Notes: a model not told the origin generated them from the sequence alone. 64,000 bases of DNA from Candidatus Daviesbacteria bacterium (GCA_028715175.1 JAQUSJ010000001.1:610386-674385), one strand, 5' to 3'; positions 16,660 through 61,677 are shown, numbered from the stretch's first letter. Made by a program: numbers and translations.

Positions 16660-17073
16660 TTATTGCTGGTTAGACTGGCAGTAACATGTGGCGCCAGTAG
16701 CAGAACACGTCCCTGCAGCATCTCCTAATGTTGCGCAAACTTTGTATGTATCAGCCCCGGCTGATTCATTTGCTCCTGAAGCATAATTATAACTACTGCC
16801 AGTACTGGGATCCTTCGGTATATTGCCGCTTGCAAACCATGTTCCTTGCAGGAGCGGATAATAAGGCGAAGTTTTAGAAATATTAGCTTCCCAGGCTTTA
16901 CTGATACTATCTATATCCGCTTTTCTTCTTGCATCTCTCGCATTCTTTTGCACACCTGAAAATATAGTAATTCCAATAATGGATAAAACGGCAATAATAG
17001 ATACAACAACAAGCAGTTCAACCAAGGTAAAACCAGAAGGATTGTTGGTAAACTTGGGCAGAAATTTCTTCAT
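16660..17073 (-). CDS. Type IV pilin (PilA-like)
   Basis: MKKFLPKFTNNPSG|FTLVELLVVVSIIAVLSIIG is a prepilin N-terminus. C-terminal Cys residues are present. Confidence 0.7.
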   Translation of the reverse strand: MKKFLPKFTNNPSGFTLVELLVVVSIIAVLSIIGITIFSGVQKNARDARRKADIDSISKAWEANISKTSPYYPLLQGTWFASGNIPKDPSTGSSYNYASGANESAGADTYKVCATLGDAAGTCSATGATCYCQSNQQ

Positions 17074-17152
17074 AAAGAATAATTATTTCGTTAATTTATT
17101 ATTCATACAAACTAAACTGTTTGTCAAGACACAACTATGTAAACTAGTTTTA

Positions 17153-18073: not shown

Positions 18074-18077
18074 AGCG

Positions 18078-18608: not shown

Positions 18609-18673
18609 AATTTCTCACCCCCTCGCATACATTGTATTCACAACTTCTAATACTTAGTCAAGTAGCATCTTGA

Positions 18674-19873
18674 TTAAAATGACGTGGTTAATTTGTAAAT
18701 AGGCAATATTATTGAGATAACTAAAAAAGCTACGCCAATCCCTAGGATGATTAGAACAATTGGCTCGATCGCTACAGTCAAATTCTTAACCATATGGTCT
18801 GATTCAGATTCAAAATAGTCAGCCAGCTTAAAAAATATTTCATCTACTTTTCCTGTTTCTTCACCCACTCTAACCATCTGGCTGATAATTTTTGGGAAAA
18901 TATTGGCTGTAAGAAGAGAAGAAAACGGCAATCCTTTTTCTACTCCGGAGTAACTTTCTTTGAGTGCATTTTTAAACACCGGATTATCCATTAAATCCGA
19001 TACTATACCAATAGAATCAAGTAACGGTATGCCTGCAGAAATCAGCAGCCCAAACGTACGGTTGAAATTTGTCAGTGCAACATTTGCCACAACCTTTCCC
19101 GCAATTGGGATTCTTAGAATCAATTTGCCTAAGAAAAGATTCCCCTCGGGGGTCCGTTTCCATCTGTCTATCCCAATGTATCCTCCAATTAAAATAATAA
19201 GTCCCAACCACCAATAGTTCACAAAAAGATTTGACGTAGTAATCAATATTTTGGTAGGCAATGGCAATTCCATTGTTGATTGAGAATACAAAGTTAAAAG
19301 CTTCGGGATAACAAAAATCATCATTATAACAAGCACTACCAGCATCATAGATAAAACTAACACCGGATAGATCATTGCTCCTTTAATTTTTGCTTGAAAT
19401 TCTCTTTCTTTCTCCAACCCGTCAGCCATCTGTAAAAGAATAGAATCAAGCTTACCGGAGGCCTCACCGGCCTTAATTAAATTAACATAAAGATGGGGAA
19501 AAATATCAGGATATTTACTAAAGGCTTGTGCCAACGTTAAACCTCCTTTGATGTCCTGGGAAATGTCATTCAAAGCTTTCTTCAGATTTTTATTGGTTTG
19601 CTGGTCTTCCAGAATATCTATCGCTTCTGATAAAACTAGTCCGCTGCTCACCATTGTTGCCAACTGTCTAGTGAAAATAACTACTTCAGAAAAACCTACC
19701 CTATTTATAAAACGGTCCAGCAACCTGTTTACAGGAGGCGTTTTAGGAGACAGTGAAATAACAATCAGACCCTCCTTTCGTATAGTCACAGCAGCAGAAT
19801 GAGCATCGGGAGATTTAACGCTGCCGACGTGTTCCTGACCCTGTATATCTTTTGCTTTGTAGATAAATTCCAT
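18674..19873 (-). CDS. pilC: Type IV pilus inner-membrane platform protein PilC (GspF family)
   Basis: It shows the duplicated GspF domain architecture, with TM segments and a conserved LPLP-type region. It lies between pilA/pilD and pilT. Confidence 0.85.
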   Translation of the reverse strand: MEFIYKAKDIQGQEHVGSVKSPDAHSAAVTIRKEGLIVISLSPKTPPVNRLLDRFINRVGFSEVVIFTRQLATMVSSGLVLSEAIDILEDQQTNKNLKKALNDISQDIKGGLTLAQAFSKYPDIFPHLYVNLIKAGEASGKLDSILLQMADGLEKEREFQAKIKGAMIYPVLVLSMMLVVLVIMMIFVIPKLLTLYSQSTMELPLPTKILITTSNLFVNYWWLGLIILIGGYIGIDRWKRTPEGNLFLGKLILRIPIAGKVVANVALTNFNRTFGLLISAGIPLLDSIGIVSDLMDNPVFKNALKESYSGVEKGLPFSSLLTANIFPKIISQMVRVGEETGKVDEIFFKLADYFESESDHMVKNLTVAIEPIVLIILGIGVAFLVISIILPIYKLTTSF

Positions 19874-19880
19874 AATAATA

Positions 19881-19960
19881 GTCGTCAGTCATCAGTCTTC
19901 AGCTATCAGACTTTCTTGTTTTTGTCTGACGACTGAAAGCTGATCGCTGATAGCTATTTC
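19881..19960. repeat. Palindromic element built of 7-nt NNNTCAG units (gtcgtcag tcatcag tcttcag ctatcag ac-loop-gtctgacgactgaaagctgat...), in the pilC-pilT intergenic region
   Basis: There is an imperfect inverted repeat around a ctttcttgtttttg loop. Related copies occur at 47004-47090, 61679-61755 and 63049-63128 and inside gyrB, murD and gyrA. Confidence 0.8.
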
Positions 19961-21006
19961 AAAAGCTTGCTTAATAATTCCGGACGCAGAGCAAATCGGA
20001 GTGCCACTTCCTGAGAAATTTTCCCTCCTTTTACCAAAACAGCAAGAGAGCGCTCAAGAGTTTGCATCCCAAGTTCTGCTGATGTTTCAATAATATTGTC
20101 TATCAAATATGTCTTTGCCTCGCGAATAATATTCCTTACGGCAGGAGTAGTAAATAATATTTCAGATGCCAAAATCCTTCCCGGTTCAATGGTCGGAACC
20201 AGACGAAGCGACAGAATTGCCTCCAGGGTCGATGCCAGCTGAAGTCTGATTTGTGGTTGTTGTATTTCGGGAAAAACATCAATAATCCGGTCAATAGATT
20301 GCGTAGATGAATTTGTATGAAGAGTTGCAAAAACCAAATGACCGGTTTCTGCAATGGTCATAGCTGAAGATATAGTTTCTAAATCCCTCATTTCACCGAT
20401 TAAAACTACATCCGGATCTTCCCGTAAAGCTGAACGCAGGGCATTTCCCCAGGATCTTGTGTCAGAATACATTTCCCTTTGTTCAATCAAAGATTTTCCC
20501 GGAGGGTACATATATTCAATTGGGTCTTCAACGGTAAGGACATGGACTGCCCGGGTCTTGTTAATCTTATTTATAAATGAAGCTAACGTTGTGGATTTAC
20601 CATGACCGGTCGGTCCGGTCACTAAAATAAAACCTTGCTTTAAATCTATCAGACGGTTGACAACGGAAGGAAAACCCAATTCTTCAACTTCCGGTATGCG
20701 ATAGGGGATAAGCCGCAAAGCCGCCGACGGGTAACCTTTTTGTCTATACAGGTTAACCCGAAATCTAGCTTTAGATTCAAATTCAAACGAAAAATCAAGT
20801 TCAAAAACTTGTTTATAGATATTTTTTTGAATATCCGAGAGAAGAGGTTGAATCAAGCTATCAATTTGTTCCGGAGTAGTTGGTACTTCACCGGGTACGG
20901 GAAAAAGATCACCATGAATTCGGAGGATAGGCGGAGATCCGACAGATAAATGTAAATCAGAAGCATTTCTTTGAATAGTTAAATCTAATAATTGTTGTAT
21001 GTTCAT
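19954..21006 (-). CDS. pilT: Twitching-motility retraction ATPase PilT
   Basis: It is colinear with PilT: SDLHLSVGSPPILRIHGDL, the Walker A motif GPTGHGKSTT, and the TVEDPIEY, REDPDVVLIGEMRD and GHLVFATLHT motifs. The size is 350 aa. Confidence 0.85.
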   Translation of the reverse strand: MNIQQLLDLTIQRNASDLHLSVGSPPILRIHGDLFPVPGEVPTTPEQIDSLIQPLLSDIQKNIYKQVFELDFSFEFESKARFRVNLYRQKGYPSAALRLIPYRIPEVEELGFPSVVNRLIDLKQGFILVTGPTGHGKSTTLASFINKINKTRAVHVLTVEDPIEYMYPPGKSLIEQREMYSDTRSWGNALRSALREDPDVVLIGEMRDLETISSAMTIAETGHLVFATLHTNSSTQSIDRIIDVFPEIQQPQIRLQLASTLEAILSLRLVPTIEPGRILASEILFTTPAVRNIIREAKTYLIDNIIETSAELGMQTLERSLAVLVKGGKISQEVALRFALRPELLSKLLK

Positions 21007-21013
21007 TTAATTT

Positions 21014-22732
21014 CTAATCCTGGGCCACTCTCAGGACTTCTTCCATGGTAGTTATACCCTCCAATACTTTCATATAACCATCCTGTTTCATCGTGATCAT
21101 ACCTTCTCCCACAGCAGCTTCTTCAATTACGCCGGATGATGTATGCTCTAAGACTAGCTTGGATATTTTGTCTGTTAAACTTAAAACTTCAAATATTCCA
21201 ATCCTGCCTAAATATCCGGTATTACCGCAAAAACTACACCCCTTACCCTTGTATAATTTCATATTTGCCGATTGGGATTGCGGGATAAATTTTCCTAAAA
21301 CTTGTTTAATATTGCCGATTACTTCCGGGGGAGCATTAAATTCCACCTTACAATGCGGATCAATTTTCCTGACAACTCTTTGTCCAACAATAGCATTTAG
21401 AGCAGACGTCAACAAAAAAGGTTCAACTCCCATATCTAAAAGCCTGGGAGGCGCACCGGCTGCGGAATTCGTATGAACAGTAGAAAACACTTGATGACCT
21501 GTTAGCGCCGCCTGTATTGCCAACTCCGCAGTTTCGGTATCTCTTATCTCACCAACCATTATGATATTCGGATCTTGCCTTAAAAAGCTTCGTAAGGTCG
21601 ATGCAAAAGTTAAGCCGACGCCGGTATTGACTTGAACTTGATTAACTCCGGGAATCTGGTATTCAACCGGATCTTCAATCGTTACCACATTCACCCTGGT
21701 GGTTGATATTTTGGTTAAAATTGAATAAAGTGTTGTGGTTTTACCGGAACCGGTTGGTCCGCAAACCAGGATAATGCCATGCGCGCGAAGCAATTGGCTT
21801 TCCAAAGCTTTAAGAGAAGCTCCTCTCAGACCCAGTTCCAAAAGCGATGGCGCGCCTGTTGATTTGGGAAGCAACCTCAAAACTACTTTCTCTCCGAATA
21901 CAGTCGGCACTGTGGAAATCCTAAGATCTACAATATTTTGTCCATAGGTAAAAGTAAACCTGCCATCCTGGGGCAGACGTTTTTCATCAATTTTCAAAAC
22001 GGCAAGGATTTTAATTCTTGAAACAAGCGCATCATGCACGCCTTTTGGAAGAAGAATTTTCTCTTGTAATATCCCGTCTATCCTATATCTAACCCTAGTT
22101 CTGTTTTCTTGAGGCTCGATATGGACATCAGAGGCCCTATTTTTTATGGCATATTCTAAAAGCTGGTCAATAATGTTGGAAACAGGTGCCTCGCGTAAAA
22201 TCTCGGGCCCCACTTGAACCTCTTTCATTGGCCTAACAGCTGCAACTTCCTTGAGCGCAGAAGTTACTTCTGAAGTTAAGTTTTGAGCATATTGATCTGA
22301 GATGTCCTGCAGAATGTCTTCTGCAAGCGCCAAATACGGCTTCACTCTAAGTCCGGTCCTTTTTTCGACAAATTGAGTAATCTGGATATCTAAAGGATCT
22401 GCCATTGCCACCCATAATTCTTCTCCTTTTTTTTCAAATGGAATTATTTGATAACGGCGGGCTGCAACTTCCGGCACTAAATTTAAGACATCCGCCGCAA
22501 TGGCCCGACCGGCCAGGGAAATATAAGGAACATTTAAAATCTGCGCTTTGGCTTGAGCTATTTTGTTATTCGGCACCAAATTCCGCTGAATTAAGATTTT
22601 TTCCACCGGTGTACCGGAATTAATACTTTCCAGCTTTATTGCAGAAACCTGATCTGAGCTTATCACTCCTTCTTTAAAAAGGATTTCCTCCAGTGTAGAA
22701 CCGGACGGATTTTGGGCAAGATTACTGGGCAT
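21014..22732 (-). CDS. pilB: Type IV pilus assembly (extension) ATPase PilB (GspE family)
   Basis: It has the GspE N-terminal domain, the Walker A motif GPTGSGKTTTLYS, the TIEDPVEY motif, and a tetracysteine-like region CSFCGNTG. The size is 572 aa. Confidence 0.85.
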   Translation of the reverse strand: MPSNLAQNPSGSTLEEILFKEGVISSDQVSAIKLESINSGTPVEKILIQRNLVPNNKIAQAKAQILNVPYISLAGRAIAADVLNLVPEVAARRYQIIPFEKKGEELWVAMADPLDIQITQFVEKRTGLRVKPYLALAEDILQDISDQYAQNLTSEVTSALKEVAAVRPMKEVQVGPEILREAPVSNIIDQLLEYAIKNRASDVHIEPQENRTRVRYRIDGILQEKILLPKGVHDALVSRIKILAVLKIDEKRLPQDGRFTFTYGQNIVDLRISTVPTVFGEKVVLRLLPKSTGAPSLLELGLRGASLKALESQLLRAHGIILVCGPTGSGKTTTLYSILTKISTTRVNVVTIEDPVEYQIPGVNQVQVNTGVGLTFASTLRSFLRQDPNIIMVGEIRDTETAELAIQAALTGHQVFSTVHTNSAAGAPPRLLDMGVEPFLLTSALNAIVGQRVVRKIDPHCKVEFNAPPEVIGNIKQVLGKFIPQSQSANMKLYKGKGCSFCGNTGYLGRIGIFEVLSLTDKISKLVLEHTSSGVIEEAAVGEGMITMKQDGYMKVLEGITTMEEVLRVAQD

Positions 22733-33133: not shown

Positions 33134-33218
33134 AAAACACCCTTTACCCCTTGCTTAAAGAGAGTCAAAAAAGGTATAATTAACTCGGGTCTAAACCCTT
33201 TTTTTGTACCCCAAACCA

Positions 33219-35783
33219 ATGAGTAACATCGGCAAAATACAACCAGCTCCTATTATTGAAGAAATGCAAAAGTCCTATTTGGACTATGCCATGTCTGTTA
33301 TTGTTTCCCGGGCGCTACCGGACGTCCGTGACGGCCTAAAACCGGTCCAAAGAAGAATTATTTACGCAATGCACCAGCAAGGTTTACACCACACATCCCG
33401 CTTCCAAAAATCAGCTGCAGTTGTCGGTGAAGTTATGAAAAACCTCCATCCTCATGGTGATGCTCCTATATATGAAGCTATGGTCCGGATGGCGCAAAAT
33501 TTTTCCATGAGATATATGCTGGTTGACGGCCAGGGGAATTTTGGATCAATTGATGGAGACTCGCCCGCGGCAATGCGGTATACGGAGGCCAGACTTTCTG
33601 CAATTTCCGAGGAGCTACTTCGTGACATTAATAAAAACACTGTCAATTTTGTGGATAACTATTCCGGTACTACACAAGAACCAGTATTACTTCCTTCTGT
33701 TATACCCAACCTATTGTTAAACGGCGCCTCCGGCATTGCTGTTGGTATGGCCACCCAAATCCCGCCACATAATCTGGGAGAAGTCGTCGATGCGCTGGTT
33801 TACATGATAGAACATCCCGAAAATAAGTCGGAAAACTCAGAAAAACTCAGAAAATCAGAAGATCAGAATTCCGGTGAATCTGATTTCCCTGACAAATCTG
33901 GTACACCGAGTCCTTCCGAATCTTTCCGATCCACTGCCACTGTGGAAAATCTCCTGCAATTTATCAAAGGTCCTGATTTTCCAACCGGCGCTTCCATCTA
34001 TGACCAAACCGAAATCCTTGCGGCTTATGCCACCGGTAAGGGCCGGATTGTAATGAGAGCCAAAGCTGAAATAGATGAATCCGGCGCAGCCGGAGGAAAA
34101 ATGCAAATTATCGTTTCGGAGCTGCCATACCAGGTGAATAAAGCTACCTTGATTGCCAGGATTGCCGAGCTGGTAAAAGATAAAAAATTAGAGGGCATTG
34201 CGGATTTACGGGATGAGTCAGACCGTAAACAAATGGTCAGAATTGTATTTGACTTAAAAAGAGACGCCAAACCCCAGGCAATCTTAAATAGTCTTTATAA
34301 ATATACTGCCATGCAATCGGTTTTTAATATCAACCTGGTCGCTCTTTCAGACGGAGTCCCGCATCTGCTGACATTAAAACGGGTATTAGAAGAATTTATT
34401 CACCACAGGCAAGTAGTCATTAGAAAACGCTCCGAATTTGAACTTGCCGAAGCCAAAGCAAGAGAACATATCCTAGAAGGCTTAAAAATTGCTGTTGATA
34501 ATATTGATGCGGTTGTGGAAACCATTAAAAAAAGTGCTGACGCAGATTCTGCAAAACAGAATTTAATGACCCGATTTAAATTAACAGAAATCCAAGCTTT
34601 GGCTATTTTGGATATGCAACTTCGAAGGTTAGCTGCGCTGGAGCGCCAAAAAATTGAAGATGAACTAAAAATGATCCGGGAAACAATTGCCTATTTGGAA
34701 GATTTGCTGGCTCATCCGGAAAAAATCTTAAAAGTTATCAAGGATGAACTCGTAAAAATTAAACTAAGATACGGAGATGACAGACGAACCCGTGTTTATA
34801 AACAAAAAGTCGGGGAATTTTCCGAAGAAGATTTAGTACCAAACGAAACAACTATTGCTACCATCACCGAAGGCGGTTATATCAAACGCCAAGCTCCGAT
34901 GTCTTTTAGGGTACAACAGCGGGGCGGCAAAGGGGTGATGGGAATTGCCACCAAAGAAACAGATGCAGTTTCTCACATTTTCTATACCCAAACACATGAC
35001 AGTATTTTATTCTTTACCGACAAAGGCAGGGTTTTCCAAATCAAGGTTTGGGAAATTCCGGAAACACAACGCGCAGCCAAAGGTCAGGCTATTGTCAACT
35101 TGATCAATGTTGAACAGGAGGAAAAAGTTACGGCAGTTTTAACCACCAGGCAAAAAGGCGAAAGCGCCAAATACTTCTTTATGTGTACTAAAGGCGGCAC
35201 TGTCAAAAAAACTTCCCTTACAGAATATGCCAATATCCGCAAAAATGGTCTGGTAGCAATCAAGTTGGATCCGAGCGACGAACTGGGATGGGTGACCCCA
35301 ACCTCAGGCAAGGATGATGTTGTTATTGTTTCAAAAAATGGCAAATCGATCCGTTTTTCCGAAACCCAAGTCAAACCAACGCACCGGGATACTTCCGGAG
35401 TAAGAGGAATTAAGCTAACCAGTAACGATGAGGTAGTCTCCTTAAATTTGGTCCAAGGTAATGATGATGAGCTTTTGGTAATTATGCAAAACGGTTTAGG
35501 TAAAAAAACCAGATTTTCCGCCTGGAGCAGACAGGGCAGGGGAGGACAAGGAGTTAAAGCTGCGCAGGTGACTGCCAAAACCGGACCAATTGTTACAGCA
35601 GAGGCCATTGATAAAAAAATGGACACGTTGGTATTAACTTCCACCAAAGGACAACTTATAAAGATGAATTTAGCAGAAGTACCGACCCTGCAGCGTCAAA
35701 CTCAAGGTGTAATCTTAATGAGAGTCAGACCCGGGGAAAAAGTAGCAGCAGCTACGGTTGTTTGTTCTAAAGAAAAAACATAG
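33219..35783 (+). CDS. gyrA: DNA gyrase subunit A
   Basis: [25 protein letters not shown], the active-site region (AAMRYTE) and the C-terminal beta-pinwheel repeats are present. There is an in-frame insertion at 33825-33900. Confidence 0.9.
33825..33900. repeat. TCAG-rich repeat / hairpin inserted in frame in gyrA (…actcag aaaaactcag aaaatcag aagatcag aattccggtgaatctga…)
   Basis: It encodes [27 protein letters not shown] between the conserved VYMIEHPE and GPDFPTGA regions. Confidence 0.7.
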
Positions 35784-38787: not shown

Positions 38788-39669
38788 TTACAATTTACCG
38801 GAGCAGAGGCGGTAAATTTGAGTAGTTGAGATATTGGAATGTCCAAGCGTTTTCTGGACTGACCGGATGTCTACTCCGTTAATTAATAAATCTGTGGCAA
38901 AGGAATGACGCAGTATTTGTGGTGTGGCTTTGATGGCAATTCTCAGCTTTTTTGCATATTTTTCTACAATCCGTTCAATGGAACGGGAAGTTAACCTCAT
39001 GGCTTCTCCTTCGTTAGTGGGATCAATTTTACCCTGAAAACGGATAAAAAGAGGTTTAAATTTGTCTTGACGGATTGCTAAGTATTTTCCTAAAAACTCA
39101 CAAGCACCGTCAGATAAAAATACCCCCCGCTCTTTTCCTCCTTTACCAACTATACTAAACTCACGTCCGTCCAGGTTGATGGTATCACGGTTTAATCCGA
39201 CCAGCTCAGATACCAGCAGACCTGTAGAAAACAATGTCTCCAGGATTGCCCGATCCCGTAGTCCGTCTTTTTTACTTGTATCCGGAGCTTTAAGGAGCAA
39301 TCTAAGTTGAGTCTCATCCAACACTTTAAGAGGAAGCCTGGAATTATTCTTTCTCAATTCAACTTTTTCGGCCGAAAGCGTTTGCACACCAGTTCCTGCC
39401 AGATACCGAAGAAATGTTCTAAGAGCTATCATAAAATAATTTTGAGTCACCCTTTTTAAAGATTCTTTGGTTTTCGGATCCGTCCATCTGGAAAGGTATA
39501 GTCTGTATTTTCCGACTAAGCTTAAGGTTATATCCTGCGGGTTTATATCACCACTAAATTCCAAAAATCTCTTTAAGCAGTGATCGTAATTTCTGATTGT
39601 TAACCGGGAGGCATTTCGCTCAAGTTCCAGATATTCCAGAAAATCTGTGATAAGAGAGGATAAGGACAT
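38788..39669 (-). CDS. Tyrosine site-specific recombinase (XerC/XerD-like)
   Basis: It has an N-terminal SAM-like core-binding domain and the C-terminal catalytic motifs R...HxxR...Y (LRHSFATDLL...GHSNISTTQIY). Confidence 0.75.
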   Translation of the reverse strand: MSLSSLITDFLEYLELERNASRLTIRNYDHCLKRFLEFSGDINPQDITLSLVGKYRLYLSRWTDPKTKESLKRVTQNYFMIALRTFLRYLAGTGVQTLSAEKVELRKNNSRLPLKVLDETQLRLLLKAPDTSKKDGLRDRAILETLFSTGLLVSELVGLNRDTINLDGREFSIVGKGGKERGVFLSDGACEFLGKYLAIRQDKFKPLFIRFQGKIDPTNEGEAMRLTSRSIERIVEKYAKKLRIAIKATPQILRHSFATDLLINGVDIRSVQKTLGHSNISTTQIYRLCSGKL

Positions 39670-39683: not shown

Positions 39684-40430
39684 CTAAAGAAGCGCTAATC
39701 CCAAAATTCCCAGCACAGTTAAAACCCCTCCAAAAATTGCTACGGTAAAAGTAAATTGCTCTGAACCGGCCGGCGGCAAAACTGTCTTCTTAACCGGCAG
39801 GGGCGCAATGGTTGCCGACGGAGTAGACGTTGTTGAACTTCCTATTGGTTTATAAACAACTGCAATCGGGGATGCCAATGGGGTAGTAGTAGTGCCGCAA
39901 GTTCCGGTTCCAACCGTATAATTTCCGTTTACGACCGAGTTTAATATATCTACTATTGTTGCCCGTTGTACAACATTGGAATCCGTAGTTTTAGCTTTAT
40001 TATTAGGATCAAAGTCAAAAGTAATTTGAGTTGCTCCGGTAGGCGCCGAATCTTTCACTGTAAAATTCAAGGTAGCCAGAGTACCTTTGCCGGTAAAAGG
40101 CGTCGCCACAGAAGCAAGTCCTGAAATGGTGATTTTGCCTGCGGCCTCATCTACATTATTACCGGGAAAGTCAGGATACACGGCTGTATTTGAAGTAATC
40201 GAACTGGTAGTAATGCTGAGCCTGGAGGAATCATAAAATAAAATTGCATCAGTACCATCTGTTTGGGCTCCGCCTGTATCAAGATTAATATTTAGAGAGA
40301 AAGGGCAGTTTCTGTTAAATGTGCCTGTGGCCGGATCCAAGGATAAAGTGGCCACCTGGGCAAAAACTCCGGTCGGAGAAACTAAAAACCATAAAACAAA
40401 CGTAAAAAAAGAAATCGCATATTTTATCAT
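39684..40430 (-). CDS. Secreted surface protein with a cohesin-like domain and a C-terminal LPPAG plus hydrophobic anchor
   Basis: It has a signal peptide and ATLSLDP...FSLNINLDTGG...AILFYDSSRLSIT (a cohesin-like beta-sandwich pattern). The C-terminus is VLPPAGSEQFTFTVAIFGGVLTVLGILGLALL. Confidence 0.45.
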   Translation of the reverse strand: MIKYAISFFTFVLWFLVSPTGVFAQVATLSLDPATGTFNRNCPFSLNINLDTGGAQTDGTDAILFYDSSRLSITTSSITSNTAVYPDFPGNNVDEAAGKITISGLASVATPFTGKGTLATLNFTVKDSAPTGATQITFDFDPNNKAKTTDSNVVQRATIVDILNSVVNGNYTVGTGTCGTTTTPLASPIAVVYKPIGSSTTSTPSATIAPLPVKKTVLPPAGSEQFTFTVAIFGGVLTVLGILGLALL

Positions 40431-41059
40431 TGCACAACAAGCTCCAAATTTACAACCTGTTCGACTATATCTTTAGCTGTACTAGCCTCTACCAGGTTGG
40501 AATCTATAGTAGACCCTTTGTCCTTAAAATCAACAGTCAATGATGTCTTCCCTGAGGCAATTTTAGTTTTAAAATTTATAGTTGCAAATTGTCCTGTACC
40601 TTTAAACACGTTCTGCAAACTGTTAATACCTGAAATAGCAATCAAACCTTTACTCGCATCCACAATCATAGTCGGATATTCCTCAAAAAGACGGCCTTTG
40701 ATTAGTCCTCCGGAAGTAGCCTCAAGAACTTTAGGATCATAATGGATTACGACATCAACTCCGTTTATTGCTTGTGAACCAGTCTCGATATTCACGGCAA
40801 CAGGCACAATTTCATTTATCCGGTATGTGTTTTTGGGAACATTTAATGAAATTGTCCCTACTTTTGATTGTAGTGGAACCTTACCTGCAATCGGGGGAGC
40901 AGGCAATGTTAATACCCGAATTGCATATATTAATTCCGCCAAAAGTATCAATCCTAAAACCAAAAAAATAAATTTGGGAAGAGAAACAAATTTTTTTATT
41001 TGCATTACAGGCTTATTCTCCTGATTATTTTGTTGTACATTTAAATCATCCATATACAT
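40427..41059 (-). CDS. Membrane-anchored protein with a cohesin-like domain
   Basis: It has an N-terminal TM anchor and VDVVIHYDPKVLEA, which resembles the cohesin YDPxVL strand. Confidence 0.45.
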   Translation of the reverse strand: MYMDDLNVQQNNQENKPVMQIKKFVSLPKFIFLVLGLILLAELIYAIRVLTLPAPPIAGKVPLQSKVGTISLNVPKNTYRINEIVPVAVNIETGSQAINGVDVVIHYDPKVLEATSGGLIKGRLFEEYPTMIVDASKGLIAISGINSLQNVFKGTGQFATINFKTKIASGKTSLTVDFKDKGSTIDSNLVEASTAKDIVEQVVNLELVVQ

Positions 41060-41093
41060 ATATTTTGTACTACAATTACCGAACTTTTACCAG

Positions 41094-43415
41094 TCACAGC
41101 GGTGAAAGGCTTGAGCTAGAAGTTGCAGTTGGGTTTGGACTTGGACTTGTGACAAAAGACGAAATTGTTGGTTCCGGATCATCCACTTGACCGAAATCAT
41201 ATCTCATGCAAGCCCAATCAATAGAATTAACCCTACAATCTCTATTGAAATCTCCGGGTCTATCACAGCTGTCTTCAGCAATGATAAACTCGCGGATTAA
41301 CTGCGCATGATCAAAAGGATTTATTGCACCGTCACGGACGTCTAATGGGAAAATGTCGCCAATAGGCAAAATGAAATTGGGGATGCTGACTATGCCGTCG
41401 CCGGCTGTAAATCGGGCAATCCTCCGCAACGATTTCGGCGCCTTAAGTGACACAATATATCTCTTACCGACTTCCAGTTTTTGAGTCAATCCCTGAACAA
41501 CTCCATCTTTATCGATCTTTACTGTTTGCCGTGTCTTTTTTCCTGTTTCATCCACCAGAACCATATCTACATTCTCTGTATCATGAGAAGCCGGCGCCCT
41601 GCAAAAAACCTTGGCTCCTAAGGCAAGCTGTGAAATAGCACCGCACTGTCCGGTTCCTGTTTGTTCGTCTGTATTTGTGAAAGTTATTGGCAAAACTTGT
41701 CCTGTTTGCGCATTCTGCAAAACCGCCTGAATGCTATTATCGCTCCATGACTTTATTTCCAAATTAGTATCACCGCTTTTTACTGTACCCTTTTCTGATC
41801 CAAAATTTTGCCCCGTTAAATTCAGGATGGTCTTGCTGTCTTCAAAACTCAAAGAACAACTGGTCATGGTCGGACCAGACCCAAGCAGTTCAATTTGGGC
41901 TTGACACTTCGGACAATCGGCTGCAGTGGTTACCTTATTGGTAGAATCCATAAATTGCACAAAGATAAACTTCTGCCCTGGTGTTACATCCTTGAAAGTA
42001 TAATCAAGCGGGTTTGATGCAACAGCAATTGTATAATCCCGCCATGGAGCGCTAGCTAAATCAGTCGGATTTTCCGCAATCCTAAATTGCTTAGTATAAG
42101 CAGGAGCAGGAGCTGAACTGGAAGCAGGAGAAGAGGCGGGAGAGGAAGAAGGCGAAGTAGCAGACGTTCCTCCACAGCTTGAAGCGCACTGACCCGTTTT
42201 CACACCTTGACAGCCGCTTGGATCAATCTGGCACCAATTTTTAACAACATTTGCCTGGTTACCACAGCTTGTATCCCATCCATTGCTTTCATAAAAAGGT
42301 AAAATATCTGTTCTTTTTAGCAAAACACATTCACTGCATGCATCCAGCCCTTGGCATCCGGCAGGCCCGCCACTACCTTCTCCCGAAGCACAACTTGCTT
42401 CTGATCCCGTTCCAATGTATCTAAGTTGCATACATTTATTGTTGTTGGTAGAAATACCGTCTGTATCTTTGAATTCATAACACCAAGCACTGGTGTCAGG
42501 ATTGATAAAATTTGGCTGGTCTGTATTCGGCGGGCAATCTTTGTTGGGATCAGCAAAGTTTTTTGTAGGACATGAAGAATTACAATCTGCAACATATTGA
42601 TGTAGTCTGTCGCATACACCTGGACTATTAATCCCCAGTTCGCTTGGTTTAAAAGTTGCTTTGCACACTATAGTACCCTTACTTGTGCCACCGCTTGTAC
42701 CACTACCACTACAAGGCTCCGCACAACCCTTGTCGTTATCACAGTAGTTTTGACCACCGAAGTTGCAGGCATAGTGTTCATATGCAGTACATGTTTTCCC
42801 ATCTTTAGTGCAGGTTCCTGCTGCACTGCCAGGATTACATGCATGGTAACCCGCAGCTATACAGTAGTTATCTGTTCCACCACCTCCACCGCTACTGCCA
42901 GTACATGGTGAATCACAGTTTGAATGATCGCAATAATTCTGCCCCCCAAAGTTACATTGGTAGGCTTCATATGCTGTACATGATTGTCCGTCTTTTGAAC
43001 AGCTGCCCGCAACACTACCTACATTACATGCATGGAAACCAGCAGCAATACAGTAATTATCTTCAGCATAAGCGGTTTTCACCAAGCCTTTGGGCAAAAA
43101 ACTTAACGGTGAATCTTTTGACTTCACAGTTTGAATAGAAGATTGTGCCGGGCCCAGCGGGGAAGTAAGCTGAACTTGAATCTGGGGCTTGGTGGCAACC
43201 CAGGTACCATCACTCTTTTTACTAACATTTGAACCTGTAAATACAATTGGATCTACAGCAGCGCGGGATTTAATAATTTGCTGCGTCCTGACAAGATTAA
43301 CACCCAATGGAATACCCAGAATAAGTATACCTAAAACAAGTAGACTAACAAGATTTTTTTTATTACGAAACAAGTTTCCTGTTTCGTTTTTGAAGTAATC
43401 TAAAATTGCTCCCAT
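41094..43415 (-). CDS. Large cysteine-rich surface protein with tandem Cys-rich modules, a shared ~60-aa Cys domain and a dockerin-like C-terminal segment
   Basis: It has an N-terminal TM/signal anchor. A duplicated ~55-aa module reads NYCIAAG(F/Y)HACN...C(S/T)KDG(Q/K)(S/T)CTAYE.Y.CNFGGQNYCD. The domain ...CSECVLL...FYESNGWDTSCGNQANVVKNWCQ...C...KTGQCASSCGG is also found twice in the 58465..61677 protein. The C-terminus DVRDGAINPFDHAQLIREF...DFNRDCRVNSIDWACMRYDF resembles dockerin Ca-binding repeats. Confidence 0.5.
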   Translation of the reverse strand: MGAILDYFKNETGNLFRNKKNLVSLLVLGILILGIPLGVNLVRTQQIIKSRAAVDPIVFTGSNVSKKSDGTWVATKPQIQVQLTSPLGPAQSSIQTVKSKDSPLSFLPKGLVKTAYAEDNYCIAAGFHACNVGSVAGSCSKDGQSCTAYEAYQCNFGGQNYCDHSNCDSPCTGSSGGGGGTDNYCIAAGYHACNPGSAAGTCTKDGKTCTAYEHYACNFGGQNYCDNDKGCAEPCSGSGTSGGTSKGTIVCKATFKPSELGINSPGVCDRLHQYVADCNSSCPTKNFADPNKDCPPNTDQPNFINPDTSAWCYEFKDTDGISTNNNKCMQLRYIGTGSEASCASGEGSGGPAGCQGLDACSECVLLKRTDILPFYESNGWDTSCGNQANVVKNWCQIDPSGCQGVKTGQCASSCGGTSATSPSSSPASSPASSSAPAPAYTKQFRIAENPTDLASAPWRDYTIAVASNPLDYTFKDVTPGQKFIFVQFMDSTNKVTTAADCPKCQAQIELLGSGPTMTSCSLSFEDSKTILNLTGQNFGSEKGTVKSGDTNLEIKSWSDNSIQAVLQNAQTGQVLPITFTNTDEQTGTGQCGAISQLALGAKVFCRAPASHDTENVDMVLVDETGKKTRQTVKIDKDGVVQGLTQKLEVGKRYIVSLKAPKSLRRIARFTAGDGIVSIPNFILPIGDIFPLDVRDGAINPFDHAQLIREFIIAEDSCDRPGDFNRDCRVNSIDWACMRYDFGQVDDPEPTISSFVTSPSPNPTATSSSSLSPL

Positions 43416-43693: not shown

Positions 43694-44704
43694 CTATTTT
43701 TCAGGTCTTTCAGCCAGGGGATGATACCGTCTATGTGAATCTTCGGCAAACCGGTCAGAAGCATTAACATATCTGGTAGTAGTATTTAATGACTCGTGTC
43801 CCAAAAGCATCTGGATGGCCACGGGAGAAGCGCCTTCTTCCGCCAAATATGTAGCAAAACCATGACGCAAAGAATGGGCGCTTGTTGGAACAATAATACC
43901 AAGTTTTTCGCGATAACTTTTGATTTTAGCTTGTAAATAATTCGGAGATATTCGACAATCTCTTTGGCCCATTCTTTTGCCTTTCTGGGGAACAAAAAGC
44001 GCCGGAAGAGCATCTTTCCTAAGTTTTAAATAGTTATCTATATAAAATTTGGCCCGTTCGGTCAAATACACAAACCGCTCTTTTTTACCTTTACCGATAA
44101 TAAAAATTCTACCGGATGAATCAATATCGCGACGGTTCAAAGACAAAAGCTCCGATATTCTCATCCCTGTTGCAAACAGTACTTCTAACATGGCTCGGTT
44201 TCGTGTAGCTACTACAGAATTTTTTTCGAAAGTTGAAGGTGACTCAATTAATGATATTAATTCGTTGAGCTCCGCTACTTTATAATGCTTTTTCTCTTTA
44301 CGAACCATCCTTACGCTTTCTGGAACAACAGGTATTTTATAGTCCTGAAAAATTAGAAATTTTAAATAACTCCTAAAAGATGACAGTATCCTATTGATCG
44401 AGCCGCTCTGCAATTTTAAAGAAGTTTCCTGTTCCGAAATAGCGGTTTTACGGTCTGTCGATAAAAGGTATGCTTTATAGCGTTCCACATCTGCTTTAGT
44501 TATTTGTTCAAATTCTTTTTGTATTTCATGTTCCAAAAAATAGGTGAGTGTAAGCAAATCACGTTCATAGTTATACATTGTCTCTTGAGAGTAGTTATCG
44601 GTTTGCAGATGTAATAAAAACTCATCAAATAGCGGCAAGGAAATTTTCTTTTTTGTTTCAATAGACGAGCTTAACATAATGAGTGTTTGAATGATTATAC
44701 TCAT
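43694..44704 (-). CDS. Tyrosine recombinase / phage-integrase family protein
   Basis: The C-terminal catalytic region AHSLRHGFATYL...LLGHESLNTTTRY (HxxR...Y) and a long N-terminal SAM-like domain are present. It is flanked by TGTCAT-bounded palindromic elements. Confidence 0.75.
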   Translation of the reverse strand: MSIIIQTLIMLSSSIETKKKISLPLFDEFLLHLQTDNYSQETMYNYERDLLTLTYFLEHEIQKEFEQITKADVERYKAYLLSTDRKTAISEQETSLKLQSGSINRILSSFRSYLKFLIFQDYKIPVVPESVRMVRKEKKHYKVAELNELISLIESPSTFEKNSVVATRNRAMLEVLFATGMRISELLSLNRRDIDSSGRIFIIGKGKKERFVYLTERAKFYIDNYLKLRKDALPALFVPQKGKRMGQRDCRISPNYLQAKIKSYREKLGIIVPTSAHSLRHGFATYLAEEGASPVAIQMLLGHESLNTTTRYVNASDRFAEDSHRRYHPLAERPEK

Positions 44705-44771
44705 AATACCAAGGCTAAATAGGTCTTGTCAAGCATTAAAGTAGCATTAATTCAGTTTTCTCCAGCGAATT

Positions 44772-44879
44772 TGTCATTCTGATCCGGCTTTGCCGGAGAA
44801 GAATATAACTGAAAGTATAGATCCTTGCGTCACCGCTAAAGCTATGGCGGCACGCGGTCGCTAGTCGCTCAGGATGACA
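44772..44879. repeat. GC-rich element bounded by TGTCATTCTGA ... TCAGGATGACA, with internal hairpins
   Basis: The sequence is tgtcattctgatccggctttgccggag...cgctcaggatgaca. Its local GC content is much higher than that of the surrounding sequence. Confidence 0.6.
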
Positions 44880-45599
44880 GTATGTGCTGGATTCACGCAA
44901 ATGAGGCTAGCCAGGCACGAGGCCCGTAAATGGCCCAAAAACGGCTTTTCAGGGGATAAGACGTAGGATAGATCATCAAGGGTTTAGGTTGTTAGAAAAA
45001 CCTAAACAAATTATTGGTAATCTTTATTTATAGACGAAAAATTAACAAGAAATTTGGACGGGAATTACCATAATTTAAGTACATGAAATTTTTCCTTATT
45101 TTTGTACTCTTGCCGATTAAATGCCGTACCTGTGGGTAATTAAACCACTTCTCCGTTTTTTACTGTTTCACATATTGTACGACATCAAAATATAGGGAAG
45201 TTTGTATAACCTTTCTCGCAAGGAGGAGTATACAGAAACAGTATCTAAATAAACACACCTGTTTCTGCTAGAAACATCTAATTAAGGTTGCATAAAGACA
45301 GAGAGAAGCACCTCTCTTCTCCAGGGAGCTTCGTTAGGTTTCGGGAAACCTACGTCCGGTATTATTTAGCACTTATCCACAAAGTATGCCATTGTTAGGC
45401 TCAATAGATCCTATAGCAAAACGTCTTCGTGCTTAGTCGCTATATCAAACCATATCAACTATTCTTTTCACGAAATTTACTCTAATTTTTCACACTTCGA
45501 CTCTCCGGCTACGCCGGATCGCTCAGTGTAAACTCTCTCACTTCCCTACTTTAGCTTATTCTGTCAATATAATTTTGAACTTTTAACTTTGAATTATAT

Positions 45600-57808: not shown

Positions 57809-58468
57809 ATGGGATCTTTCTGGGAAAAGCCCATTTTCTGGATCATATTTGTACTGCTAGTACTGATTTCTATACCTGTGTTAACTTATTTTTTCAAGCC
57901 ACAAATTTTATCCGGCATAGGTTATATACCCAGTAAGATAAAAAACCTGCAAGCTCCTAAACCGGGAAAGTGTCTAATTCTTGAAGGAAAATATTGTTCT
58001 AAAGCAGAACTTGTAGAACGTATCAGTGCAAAAGGAGAATCTAGTAAGGGAGTTGGGGTTAAAGTAGATCCAGGCACTAAAATATTTTCACCTATAGCTG
58101 GTTCAGCCTCAAAAAGAGAATCTGATACTGGTTTTGTGGCTACTATTAATAATCCTAATGATCCTACTGGTCTAGTGCATGGTATACAAGGTGATATAGT
58201 ATTTTACAACCCAAATACAGAAGACAAAGTTGAAAAGGGACAAGAAATAGGATATGTTGGCACAAAACACTATCCCTCCCCTTTAGGTGATTATAACCTC
58301 CGTATTAGTTCAAATATCATTGAAAATGGTAAGCTAGTTGATAATCCTGGTGCACTACAAAAGCTTTTTCCAGAGGCATTTGAAAATGGCGTTGTAAGGG
58401 TAATTGATCTGCGTAATTCTGATTCTACTGGAAGTGGAATTTTGAATCCTTCCTATAACAAACAATGA
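57809..58468 (+). CDS. Membrane-anchored protein with the same degenerate LytM/M23-like C-terminal domain (paralog 2)
   Basis: It has a different N-terminal TM anchor. The C-terminal ~146 aa are identical to paralog 1. Confidence 0.45.
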   Translation: MGSFWEKPIFWIIFVLLVLISIPVLTYFFKPQILSGIGYIPSKIKNLQAPKPGKCLILEGKYCSKAELVERISAKGESSKGVGVKVDPGTKIFSPIAGSASKRESDTGFVATINNPNDPTGLVHGIQGDIVFYNPNTEDKVEKGQEIGYVGTKHYPSPLGDYNLRISSNIIENGKLVDNPGALQKLFPEAFENGVVRVIDLRNSDSTGSGILNPSYNKQ

Positions 58469-61400
58469 AAAACAAAAGAATTATTTTTCTTAAACTTACA
58501 ATACAGCTTGTTCTACTGTTTATTTTTCTCATTCTGCTTACCCTTGATGTCCCTTTAGTTCAAGCTGATACTAGTTATGTCACACCATTGTATTTACCTG
58601 CCGCAGGTGGTCTCGGATACATACCATGTAATGATGCTAGCGAATGTAATCTGGGCGCTTGTTTTAATAGCCAGGCTGTGGGAGTAACTGATTGTGGACA
58701 ACCTTGTCAAGGTGGAATTACCTGGACAAAATATGACTACTATGGCTGTCAACAAAACTGGATCAATTTTGACACGGGAGAAGAAGAATGTCGACCAATT
58801 TACATTCAAGGCGGTTCTGTCTGTTCTACCGGGGATAAATGCGTCTCAGGAGAAACAGGATTAAGATCTGGAAGCTGTAGTTGTGGCGGTTATAGTTCAA
58901 GCATATACAAGTACTGTTGTACCTCTGCAGGAGCAGCTGAAGCATGCACTACTGCTGGCGCCACTCAAGACAATAATCCTCCACCGGAAGGACGGTGTCC
59001 GGGAGGGTATATTACAGATGAAAATAGAGTAAGAAGTTCTGCTTGTACTGCTTCCCCTACTCCAACCCCTTCCCCTGCACCCATCTGTCAGAATAACTCT
59101 GACTGTGGGACTTGTAGAAGATGCTGTATAAATCCGCCAAGTAACTATTGCTCTACTTTAAACTATGAATGCTCCGGGACTTTAATCCCTGGCTGTGTCA
59201 GCTGTCAGTGCCAGTATAGCCAAACTTGTAACAGCGGGGCAGGAGTCCAGACTTGCAATGGCAGATATAATAGCTCTGGTATTTGTGTCTACTCCTCTCT
59301 CTGTGATCCAAATTGCAGCGAATGCACTTCCTCTTCCAATCCTCCTCCTGCCACCCCTCCTCCTGCTCCTCCCCCTCCTCCTCCCGGATGTTCTTTTTCC
59401 AACTGTGGTGCTTCAGGCTGCCAGCCTGACCAAAGATATGTTTCCGGAACTTGTTCATATGCCTGGTACTTTGGTCCTGCCTGTTACTATGATGCAAGCT
59501 GTGGTGGTGGGGGTGGCGGGGATAATTATGTTGCACCCACCACCGGCCCAAATTGCACTTCCGATGACATCATGTATTTTGATCCTCCAGCCCCTAAACA
59601 AGATCAACCTTTTACGATTAATGTTTTGTCCAAAGGACCCTCGGGAAGGTATCTTTCCATAGCTTTGGATATTACCACCCCTTTAGACCCGGCTGGTGTT
59701 CAGGTAGTCACCTCCCCGTCATACCCGGACATCCCTTCCTTTTATCAGGTCCAGGGTTATCAATACAGCTGGCAATGGCTGATTGGTAAAGCTGAAAGTG
59801 GACCCACTCCCTATCTTTTTGAGTTCAGCATCAATGGCCGCAGCCAATACTGTGTTTCCAATATACTTTATGTTGATCCTCCCAGCATCTCTGCCTGGAT
59901 AAAAGCTTCCGGAGACGTTCACAGCAATGACTGGATAAGAGCTTCCGGTGGACCGGATGCCATTACCTACCAGGGTATAATTTGTCCTGCCCAAAGCCAA
60001 AACCCCAGGGTAACAGGAGGATTAATCACTACTTACGGCTTATCTGATAATTTTGGCAATTCCGAAGCTATCTGTGTGGTGGGCAGTTCTGCTCCTTTTG
60101 CTCCTTTTAAGCTTCTTACTTATGATGATCTAAAATCACTCTACTTTACCCAATCCAAACTTGGTCCGGATCAAAAAATTACTTTGACCGGTAACCAAAC
60201 CCAATCCTCCCTCACAAATCCCATTAACTTATCCTCCCAGGCATTACTACCTCAACCCACTAACTTCCTAGCCAGCTTTAAAAACCTCATCCAAAAACTG
60301 GTTAACCCCATCTCAGAAGTCTTTGCCCAATCAGCGCCTGCCTGTTCCGGGGATATATGTACTGATTGTCTGATCAATAACCAGGGAGATCCAACTGCTT
60401 TTCTTAAGTTTTATGAAGATAATGGCTGGGACATAAGTTGCGGCAGTCAAACAGGCATAATCCAGAATTGGTGTAACGCTACCAGCGAGCAGGCCACAGC
60501 TCAATGCAATTCCATGAAGAGTGGTGTTTGTGCCATAGCATGTGGTAATACCCCCAGTCCAGGCACAAATCAGTTGACCGGTAATCTCTGGGACGGCACT
60601 AATTTTAATACGCCTGATGGCGGCGCCCCATCCGGACCTTCCTTATCAGCTCCGGTTCCTGACACAGCCACAGCCTTAGATCAAAACTGGGGTACCGGTG
60701 CGCCAAACTCCACTGTGGGATCTGATACTTTCTCAGGCAGATGGCAGGGTAACTTTACCTTTAAGGCAGGAACTTACACCTTTTATGCCGGAGCGGATGA
60801 CGGGGTCAGACTGAAAATTGACGGAGTAACCAGGATCAACAGCTGGGTTGATACAGGCTATACTGAGAGAAGCTATACTCAAATATTTTCTTCCCAGGCC
60901 AAACACCTAATCGAGCTTGAATACTATGAAAATGGCGGAGATGCCAGAGTTTCTTTGCGCTGGAGTCATGCAGCGTTTGCCTGTTCCGGGGATACATGCA
61001 CGGATTGTCTGATCAGCAAGCAGGGAGATCCTCCTAATTTCCTCCGGTTTTATCAAAATAATGGCTGGGACATAAGTTGCAGTAACCAGACTGCCATAGT
61101 TGCCAACTGGTGCAACACCACTGATCCTTCAGGCTGTACTGCTTTAAAGTCCGGCAGCTGTGCCACAGCATGTGGTTATGTAGCCCCTACTCCCACACCA
61201 ACCCCTACTCCAACACCTCCTGTACTGGATAAGCTCTATCATATTACCGGAGACTTAACTGTAGAAAGCAACATGACTGTTGGTAAAACAGGAATTATTT
61301 TCATAGATGGCAATTTATCGATTAACACTAATCTGACTCATACAAGTAGTAATGCCGGATTGGTATTGGCGGTAAAAGGAGATGTCACTGTCAATCCTTC

Positions 61401-61677
61401 AGTTACCCGGATTGATGCAGTTATTATCTCTTCCGGGAAAATCTACACTGCAGGTTCCGGCTGCAACCACGGCTCACCTGTGACTGCCAACCAGCTGGTC
61501 ATTAACGGCAGTTTAATATCTTTAGACAGCAACAAAAACATTGAATTTTGCCGGACTCTTGGAAGCAACAACAATACCACCAAGCCGGCCGAACTGATCA
61601 ACAACCAGCCCAAATATCTGGTCATTTTGCGCAATCTCTTTTCCCAAACCTACCAGAAATGGGAAGAAATACCATAA
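58465..61677 (+). CDS. Giant secreted Cys-rich/Pro-rich protein with a PA14 domain, two copies of a ~70-aa Cys-rich module and a C-terminal beta-helix-like region
   Basis: It has a signal/TM N-terminus. PA14 is identified by FSGRWQGNFTFKAGTYTFYAGADDGVRLKIDG...ELEYYENGGDARVSLRW. ACSGD(I/T)CTDCLI..QGDP..FL.FY.(D/N)NGWDISC..Q..I..NWCN occurs twice. There are PPPAPPPPPPG and PTPTPTPTPTP linkers. Confidence 0.6.
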   Translation: MKNKRIIFLKLTIQLVLLFIFLILLTLDVPLVQADTSYVTPLYLPAAGGLGYIPCNDASECNLGACFNSQAVGVTDCGQPCQGGITWTKYDYYGCQQNWINFDTGEEECRPIYIQGGSVCSTGDKCVSGETGLRSGSCSCGGYSSSIYKYCCTSAGAAEACTTAGATQDNNPPPEGRCPGGYITDENRVRSSACTASPTPTPSPAPICQNNSDCGTCRRCCINPPSNYCSTLNYECSGTLIPGCVSCQCQYSQTCNSGAGVQTCNGRYNSSGICVYSSLCDPNCSECTSSSNPPPATPPPAPPPPPPGCSFSNCGASGCQPDQRYVSGTCSYAWYFGPACYYDASCGGGGGGDNYVAPTTGPNCTSDDIMYFDPPAPKQDQPFTINVLSKGPSGRYLSIALDITTPLDPAGVQVVTSPSYPDIPSFYQVQGYQYSWQWLIGKAESGPTPYLFEFSINGRSQYCVSNILYVDPPSISAWIKASGDVHSNDWIRASGGPDAITYQGIICPAQSQNPRVTGGLITTYGLSDNFGNSEAICVVGSSAPFAPFKLLTYDDLKSLYFTQSKLGPDQKITLTGNQTQSSLTNPINLSSQALLPQPTNFLASFKNLIQKLVNPISEVFAQSAPACSGDICTDCLINNQGDPTAFLKFYEDNGWDISCGSQTGIIQNWCNATSEQATAQCNSMKSGVCAIACGNTPSPGTNQLTGNLWDGTNFNTPDGGAPSGPSLSAPVPDTATALDQNWGTGAPNSTVGSDTFSGRWQGNFTFKAGTYTFYAGADDGVRLKIDGVTRINSWVDTGYTERSYTQIFSSQAKHLIELEYYENGGDARVSLRWSHAAFACSGDTCTDCLISKQGDPPNFLRFYQNNGWDISCSNQTAIVANWCNTTDPSGCTALKSGSCATACGYVAPTPTPTPTPTPPVLDKLYHITGDLTVESNMTVGKTGIIFIDGNLSINTNLTHTSSNAGLVLAVKGDVTVNPSVTRIDAVIISSGKIYTAGSGCNHGSPVTANQLVINGSLISLDSNKNIEFCRTLGSNNNTTKPAELINNQPKYLVILRNLFSQTYQKWEEIP

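Follow-up and report, generated by a model that had tools for sequence, protein, structure and literature searches.

A probable non-cellulosomal cohesin-dockerin surface-display cassette across Candidatus Daviesbacteria

What might a dockerin-bearing protein and two cohesin proteins, encoded side by side, be doing in a bacterium with no sign of cellulose degradation around them? The question is raised by a 64,000-nt stretch of DNA from Candidatus Daviesbacteria, a lineage of tiny-celled bacteria in the candidate phyla radiation (CPR, or Patescibacteria). We refer to this whole stretch as the window and count all positions from its first letter. The first gene of the trio (41094-43415) encodes a 773-aa exported, cysteine-rich protein with a C-terminal X-module-like domain and dockerin, here termed the cargo. 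It is followed by the genes for CohA (40427-41059; 210 aa) and CohB (39684-40430; 248 aa), each with one cohesin. All three genes, and all features of their products described below, lie on the minus strand. Open reading frame (ORF) calling leaves a gap of 34 nt between the cargo and CohA genes and an overlap of 4 nt between those for CohA and CohB. The start of CohA is ambiguous, since NCBI gives the protein 208 aa and another caller 192 aa. NCBI names both CohA and CohB 'cohesin domain-containing protein', and a 100% identical record for the 773-aa protein, also from Candidatus Daviesbacteria, is named 'IPT/TIG domain-containing protein'. An earlier note on this DNA had read the trio as a cohesin-dockerin anchoring system, and every sequence feature that it quoted was found in its place. 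Our analysis indicates that the genes probably form a non-cellulosomal cassette of three genes for surface display by cohesin and dockerin, present throughout the Candidatus Daviesbacteria lineage.

Domains of the three proteins

The dockerin module occupies residues 683-741 of the cargo (41193-41369) and consists of two EF-hand-like loops, each followed by a helix. The two segments singled out in the earlier note are LDVRDGAINPFDHAQLIREF (residues 691-710, 41286-41345) and DFNRDCRVNSIDWACMRYDF (residues 722-741, 41193-41252). The loop of repeat 1, GDIFPLDVRDGAINPFD (41310-41360), contains an insertion of 4 residues and retains positions 1, 5, 9 and 12, while that of repeat 2, DFNRDCRVNSID (41217-41252), is canonical at positions 1, 3, 5, 9 and 12. 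Taken as an isolated 69-aa module, the dockerin scores 23.9 bits against Pfam Dockerin_1 (PF00404), over the gathering score of 22.9 bits, and 15/15 homologous modules match the same family (best E 1.3e-10). Full-length orthologues from other species reach 27.8-35.1 bits across profile positions 5-52 of 57, and a precomputed PF00404 match exists for 10 of 18 cargo homologues, one of which is named a dockerin protein. A profile built from 15 dockerin sequences aligns across both repeats with the solved type I dockerins 2mte, 1daq (CelS) and 4fl4_A at E ~4e-6, and matches X-module-dockerin (XDoc) chains of type II weakly.

The dockerin family consensus reads LPxGDIFPxDGGDGxINAxDKxELNRQW-(~10)-GDFNxDGRVNSIDWACMRYDF. 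Conservation of the calcium ligands was counted per position over 51 species. In repeat 1, position 1 is D/N in 98%, position 5 D in 94%, position 9 N/D in 96% and position 12 D in 100%, with position 3 variable; the corresponding values for repeat 2 are D 100% (position 1), N 96% (3), D 100% (5), N 100% (9) and D/E 100% (12). The Cys of helix 3 is conserved at 94% over the same species. Loop 2 of the window copy has Cys instead of Gly at position 6. A distant family member possesses a fully canonical loop 1, GDLNGDGIINTVD, which marks the 'IFPxD' of this subfamily as an insertion of 4 residues and a derived state. An AlphaFold2 model places the two dockerin helices at model residues 267-278 and 298-306, in exact agreement with the repeats, and folds the C-terminus with confidence (predicted local distance difference test score, pLDDT, about 80-92) as two helices and not as a disordered tail. 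The Dockerin_1 score of the module, the matches to solved dockerins and this folded two-helix model together bear out the claim that the C-terminus carries two dockerin segments.

Directly before the dockerin lies an X-module-like β-sandwich (residues ~596-682, 41370-41630) that contains the invariant Cys605, and before this an IPT/TIG immunoglobulin-like (Ig-like) domain (residues 515-589, 41649-41873), which scores 27.9 bits against Pfam TIG, for a gathering score of 20.9. The model of cargo residues 434-773 was built from 16 sequences (pLDDT 86; predicted template modelling score, pTM, 0.70) and comprises three β-sandwich domains, two helices and then an unstructured S/P tail, with the last β-sandwich directly N-terminal to the dockerin and packed against it. 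Its best Foldseek match is the CipA fragment containing cohesin 9, an X-module and a type II dockerin (4fl4, 3kcp; E 4e-8 to 2e-7). It also matches the XDoc chains 2b59_B, 5k39_B, 5m0y_B and 5g5d_B over 161-167 columns, with template modelling scores (TM-scores, target-normalised) of 0.59-0.64. Further matches to cyclodextrin glycosyltransferase (CGTase) arise from the TIG domain, which matches a CGTase domain both by sequence and by fold. No sequence-level match to an X-module family was found for the β-sandwich preceding the dockerin. As modelled, the β-sandwich and dockerin together resemble the X-module-dockerin dyad of type II anchoring dockerins. The conserved half of the cargo has four invariant cysteines, C520, C591, C605 and C736, among which we infer two disulfides; one of these may pin dockerin helix 3 to the X-like domain.

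Both downstream proteins had been called cohesin-like in the earlier note, and profile and fold searches agree. Against Pfam Cohesin (PF00963; gathering score 24.1 bits), CohA scores 37.3 bits (E 3.8e-9) and CohB 30.7 bits (E 4.1e-7), and nearly all homologues of the two have a precomputed PF00963 match. The CohA domain spans residues 71-194 (40478-40849) and has profile matches to cohesin structures; the CohB domain spans residues 25-178 (39897-40358) and has two invariant cysteines, Cys42 and Cys178. CohA has no Cys. The strand strings ILFYDSSRLSIT (40209-40244) and VVIHYDPKVLEA (40718-40753) are those that had been quoted as cohesin-like. CohA and CohB are paralogous (hhalign probability 99.8%, E 1.5e-27) and have the motif K-x-T-T-D-S-N-[LV]-V-E in common. 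Single-sequence searches against PDB sequences gave marginal matches only, and profiles were required; cohesin profiles reached E 0.002-0.07, and the fold search settled the identity of the domain. The CohB model (90 sequences, mean pLDDT 83) has the nine-stranded β-sandwich (jelly-roll) fold of cohesins, to which CohA is tied by hhalign, and the top 50 PDB matches of the model in Foldseek are cohesins only. The best of these are compact type I cohesins (Clostridium acetobutylicum CohA2; 6kgf, 6kgc) at E 1e-11, TM-score 0.81-0.84 and root mean square deviation 2.1-2.6 Å; type II and III cohesins rank below them, at TM-scores of 0.52-0.63. Profile searches with Pfam Cohesin and Dockerin_1, and structure prediction followed by Foldseek, were among the checks that the earlier note had proposed, and the similarity they reveal leaves its interpretation standing.

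Export and anchoring

All three proteins have export signals predicted from sequence. The cargo signal (43260-43352) is made up of hydrophobic residues 22-42 followed by QQIIKSRA (residues 45-52, 43260-43283), in which S-x-A is a likely signal-peptidase site. A hydrophobic or transmembrane segment with a QQQxxxS[RK]A motif begins about two thirds of the cargo orthologues, and the others have classical signal peptides. The motif, seen after the transmembrane segment in cargo N-termini from loci L008 to L065, may belong to a signal peptide or processing site specific to the lineage.

The two cohesin proteins differ in topology. CohA has an N-terminal transmembrane anchor (residues 30-50, 40910-40972) with an invariant Glu42, and a Pro-rich spacer then leads to the cohesin. 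Across 30 homologues both Glu E42 and Tyr Y45 are invariant inside this predicted helix, which hints at an intramembrane interaction. CohB begins with a signal peptide (residues 1-24, 40359-40430) ending in VFA|Q. Its cohesin is followed by an S/T/P-rich linker (39786-39896) that is of low confidence in the AlphaFold2 model, by LPPAG (39765-39779) and a 23-residue hydrophobic C-terminus, and the hydrophobic helix there (39687-39755) ends in LGILGLALL. The N-terminal helix of CohA, and the signal peptide and C-terminal helix of CohB, fit the claim that the downstream proteins are anchored to the membrane or wall.

Whether the CohB tail is a sortase signal, as had also been suggested, is a separate matter. 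The LPPAG and its hydrophobic tail are indeed present, and LPPAG recurs in close relatives; across the family, a sortase signal is unsupported. LPxxG occurs in 25 of 59 species CohB tails, the others having TGKGPGTP, VGGxTGT, LPQSA or CPGGTCPG, and K/R appears within the last six residues in 4/59. There is accordingly no conserved LPXTG, with LPPAG in its place here, and no positively charged tail behind the highly conserved helix. The conserved element of the tails in the 59 species is the helix sequence …LTVLGILGLALL. Among the 33 window ORFs scanned with Pfam no sortase was found, no window ORF has the sortase motif TLxTC, and CohB matches none of the NCBIfam sorting-signal models. We therefore reject a sortase signal as a feature of the family, LPxxG being confined to a minority of tails and the basic tail nearly always missing.

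For the window protein itself, a sortase or exosortase-type substrate bound covalently to peptidoglycan via LPPAG would accord with the LPPAGS that precedes its hydrophobic helix, with the canonical LPNTG of one homologue, with the peptidoglycan synthesis genes in the window (Mur ligases, Ddl and MurI), and with the sortase anchoring of ScaE, an anchoring cohesin protein of Ruminococcus flavefaciens (PMC12484212). We regard this as unlikely given the tail counts above, the lack of TLxTC among the window ORFs and of an NCBIfam sorting-signal match, and the fact that the conserved part of the tail is the helix sequence itself (...LTVLGILGLALL). Because LPxxG is variable, a basic tail is rare and no sortase was found among the window ORFs scanned, we think it likelier that CohB is held by a C-terminal transmembrane anchor, or by an uncharacterised signal specific to the lineage, than by a sortase of the classical kind.

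Conservation, cargo variability and competing explanations

Species-representative genomes were scanned with a CohB profile, which gave 59 loci, and six-frame ORFs from these were then searched by hidden Markov model. The meaningful labels among the 59 loci are all Daviesbacteria, Microgenomates or Patescibacteria. The dockerin protein, CohA and CohB are encoded in this order on a single strand in 51 of the 52 species loci with enough upstream flank; the exception, L047, has kept CohB and lost the dockerin gene and CohA. Almost all of the Daviesbacteria species examined have thus kept the three-gene cassette. A second dockerin protein is encoded upstream at several loci, and L053 has two dockerin-CohA pairs. 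Six further loci contain, in order, a dockerin protein, a cohesin of ~200 aa, a cohesin of ~240 aa, a Xer-like recombinase, a P-type ATPase and gyrA. About 25 GTDB species-representative records with the cassette and its synteny (including L012, L013, L017 and L021) are titled 'uncultured Gammaproteobacteria bacterium isolate binchicken_…/SRP…'; the taxonomy in these titles seems generic or mistaken.

The remainder of the cargo is far less constant than its C-terminus. Orthologues range from 521 to 1253 aa, with only the C-terminal ~330 aa conserved and alignable, and homologues cover 40-68% of the query, the N-terminal region being unalignable among them. The window protein has 40 Cys. Within its hypervariable N-terminal two thirds are two tandem 44-aa six-Cys repeats (42738-43058; NYCIAAG[FY]HACN...CNFGGQNYCD), which show up in the DNA as a 136-nt direct repeat (D1) with 74% identity. 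Among nine cargo orthologues Pfam recognises only TIG, fn3, Big_3_5 and dockerin domains, and in two a cohesin above cut-off. Cassette variants were noted at L005:4504-6348 and L033:264-3191 (also L004, L022 and L029), with some cargo bearing a cohesin of its own that exceeds the Pfam threshold, in the manner of an adaptor scaffoldin. Thrombospondin type 1 repeat genes lie just upstream of the cassette in L004 and L005.

These observations suggest how the cassette might work. The large cargo would be exported by its N-terminal hydrophobic signal, with probable cleavage at the S-x-A site, and would expose an N-terminal region that is hypervariable, rich in disulfides and non-catalytic, made up of Cys-rich repeats and Ig-like modules. 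It would be retained on the cell by the C-terminal X-module-like β-sandwich and calcium-binding dockerin, the latter plugging non-covalently into one or both of the paralogous single-cohesin anchors. CohA would be tethered via its N-terminal transmembrane helix and CohB via its C-terminal hydrophobic helix, at the end of a flexible S/T/P linker. Adhesion is the most likely task of the variable cargo, whether to a host cell, to a partner or to a substrate. The choice of partner cohesin, signal cleavage and an adhesin role for the cargo are all presumed steps of this scheme.

Several points weigh against a display cassette. On the full 773-aa protein Dockerin_1 scores 16.8 bits, under the gathering score, and matches repeat 2 alone. 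Repeat 1 of the window copy is degenerate: loop 1 departs from the family with V-R in place of G-G, and it combines the 4-residue insertion with a missing position-3 ligand. The pairing is also unorthodox, in that the dyad resembles type II/III XDoc and would call for a type II or III partner cohesin, whereas CohB ranks type I first. We infer binding between dockerin and cohesin from domain identity and lineage-wide adjacency. The dockerin and cohesin census covered the 64-kb window, with the rest of the genome outside it. Finally, the housekeeping flanks (RuvC, DUF5656, Xer-like recombinase, P-type ATPase and gyrA) are syntenic as well; adjacency is therefore partly vertical inheritance of the block, and is supportive rather than decisive.

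This last point opens the way to a reading in which the domains are genuine and the neighbours are not partners, the cohesins catching other dockerin proteins, whether from elsewhere in the genome or from other cells, this dockerin another cohesin, and adjacency being inherited synteny. The whole neighbourhood is syntenic across Daviesbacteria, two dockerin proteins lie upstream in some loci, some cargo has its own cohesin, and a database search limited by word matching returned 743 CohB-like proteins against 18 cargo homologues. We nevertheless consider non-partnership quite improbable: the 64-kb window has no second dockerin, leaving this one as the sole candidate there, and the order and strand of the trio, with its abutting or overlapping genes, have been kept in 51/52 species despite complete replacement of the cargo N-terminus. 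Co-encoding of partners also has a precedent in the R. flavefaciens sca cluster. Two dockerin proteins at some loci and cohesin-bearing cargo indicate that the network may exceed 1:1.

The strong purifying selection on the calcium ligands and both helices in 51 species, the closeness of the cohesin fold to dockerin-binding type I cohesins and the strict retention of two paralogous cohesins beside a dockerin all speak against a second reading, in which these modules are structural or calcium-binding domains of the envelope, for example of a surface layer, that do not bind each other. Repeat 1 is non-canonical, as such a role would allow, and many non-cellulosomal cohesin- and dockerin-like modules are not known to have a partner; on balance we judge it to be of similarly low probability. 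A minimal cellulosome tethering a polysaccharide-degrading enzyme is highly improbable, as the classical association of cohesin-dockerin pairs with cellulosomes and a weak GH5/GH42-like gene ~4 kb upstream in one related locus are set against the absence by Pfam of any catalytic domain or carbohydrate-binding module (CBM) from this cargo and nine orthologous ones, the absence of glycoside hydrolases from the 33 window ORFs scanned, and anchors that have one cohesin each, with no dockerin-borne enzyme or multi-cohesin scaffoldin with a CBM. The 'non-cellulolytic context' of the earlier note therefore holds within the window, and the occurrence of only TIG, fn3 and Ig-like modules in orthologous cargo agrees with it.

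A display cassette thus remains our preferred reading, and it invites a bolder extension that we put forward tentatively, as a doubtful possibility. The cassette could be the principal attachment apparatus of Daviesbacteria, with a hypervariable, disulfide-rich adhesin that sets host or partner range and is shown via a calcium-dependent X-dockerin. The asymmetric dockerin could then dock on both oppositely oriented anchors, possibly bridging them via its dissimilar repeats, and the unusually conserved C-terminal helix could be a lineage-specific sorting or assembly signal. If this were true, cohesin-dockerin would serve a CPR lineage as a core device for cell-cell interaction and not for enzyme assembly. 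Little is known of the means by which CPR/Patescibacteria hold on to hosts or partners, and a mechanism can be assigned to few of the proteins on their surface. The cassette provides a concrete, testable plug-and-socket model of display with a fast-evolving exposed part.

Known systems and genomic surroundings

In logic, the closest analogue is the ScaE system of R. flavefaciens, in which some cargo is likewise non-catalytic and adhesive and the partners are co-encoded. CttA, one of the X-dockerin cargoes of ScaE, is a non-catalytic adhesin, and the partners are co-encoded in the sca cluster. ScaE itself is a sortase-anchored cohesin protein that captures X-dockerin proteins (PMC12484212). Like the anchors described here, it is a single-cohesin surface anchor with a C-terminal signal; its cohesin, of type III, binds ScaB, CttA and a cysteine peptidase by their X-dockerin dyads. 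The differences are that the present cohesin is structurally nearer to type I (TM-score 0.81-0.84) than to ScaE (2zf9; TM-score 0.59-0.62), that there are two paralogous anchors of opposite topology with no canonical LPXTG or basic tail, and that the host belongs to the CPR and has no cellulosome here.

The type II system of Clostridium thermocellum, in which the XDoc of CipA pairs with SdbA, OlpB and Orf2p, similarly has a large secreted protein that ends in a β-sandwich-dockerin dyad for cell-surface attachment, and its dyads are the best structural matches of our C-terminal model (4fl4, 3kcp, 2b59_B and 5k39_B). Here, in contrast, the anchors are transmembrane helices and not SLH domains, the fold ranking contains no type II cohesin signature, and the cargo, unlike CipA, is not a scaffoldin, though some orthologues bear one cohesin. 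Type I systems provide the best matches for the CohB fold (C. acetobutylicum CohA2) and for the dockerin profile (C. thermocellum CelS), and their dockerins also have two EF-hand-like calcium loops. Unlike type I dockerins, the repeats here are asymmetric, helix 1 reading ...DKSELNRQW and helix 3 ...DWACMRYDF, and they feature the 4-residue insertion in repeat 1, an invariant Cys in helix 3 and no attached enzyme.

Outside cellulosomes, modules of this sort occur for example in Archaeoglobus fulgidus and Clostridium perfringens, and the proteins that bear them are often adhesive or of no known function. Peer et al. (2009, FEMS Microbiol Lett) reportedly described cohesin- and dockerin-like modules of the non-cellulosomal kind from all three domains of life. 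The present case differs from such scattered modules in being a fixed three-gene cassette with hypervariable cargo across a whole CPR lineage. The NCBI annotation of the cohesins, the existence of non-cellulosomal cohesin-dockerin pairs and anchoring systems of cohesin and X-dockerin are already known; a literature search confined to one library of papers found none linking cohesin or dockerin to Daviesbacteria, Microgenomates or CPR surface display. The cassette widens the non-cellulosomal use of cohesin-dockerin pairs, and a compact natural pair of X-dockerin and type I-like cohesin could interest protein engineers.

The cassette is bracketed by genes for Xer-like tyrosine recombinases at 38788-39669 and 43694-44704, both on the minus strand. 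The downstream recombinase gene abuts or overlaps the CohB gene in all related loci examined, and the upstream one is present in most, not all. The two may simply be XerC and XerD. Between the upstream recombinase gene and the cargo gene sits a 16-nt inverted repeat (43543-43558/43659-43674; 15/16 complementary, 100 nt apart) that overlaps a promoter-like site, resembling an invertible switch. We rejected an invertible promoter, as the orientation is unchanged in a second assembly of the strain and the closest relative is without the right arm; in 42 loci, moreover, inverted repeats ahead of the cargo gene (mean 11.3 nt) show no enrichment over shuffled sequence (10.7 nt).

On the other side of the upstream recombinase gene, before a DUF5656 gene, is an ORF-free gap of 895 bp (44705-45599, minus orientation). 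Blocks of it (gene-oriented ~104-176, ~400-458 and ~590-698) have 66-96% nucleotide identity in many Daviesbacteria species, while the flanking proteins of these species are only about 50-60% identical. Searches of the gap with Rfam, at gathering and permissive thresholds, and with ARAGORN found no RNA gene, transfer RNA and transfer-messenger RNA included, and RNAalifold detected almost no covariation in the best block. The gap could be an unknown non-coding RNA or a regulatory region.

By Pfam scans the window otherwise contains housekeeping genes, a type IV pilus cluster, the peptidoglycan synthesis genes, gyrB, gyrA, a giant protein with a PA14 domain and Lgt. The window gyrA (33204-35783) is without an intein, and that of a related Daviesbacteria genome (L007:13206-16436) has one (PF14890) between its DNA_topoisoIV halves. 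An IS200-like Y1 transposase domain (PF01797, 36.9 bits; 7510-8232, plus strand) adjoins the pilus cluster, which spans 8216-22732 on the minus strand and encodes PilO-like, PilM, prepilin peptidase A24, PilC (T2SSF), PilT-like and PilB (T2SSE) proteins; several unassigned ORFs between the pilus genes, at 10564-16654, may be pilins. The PA14-domain protein (53 bits; 1070 aa, 58465-61677, plus strand) has no dockerin and is another candidate surface or adhesion protein.

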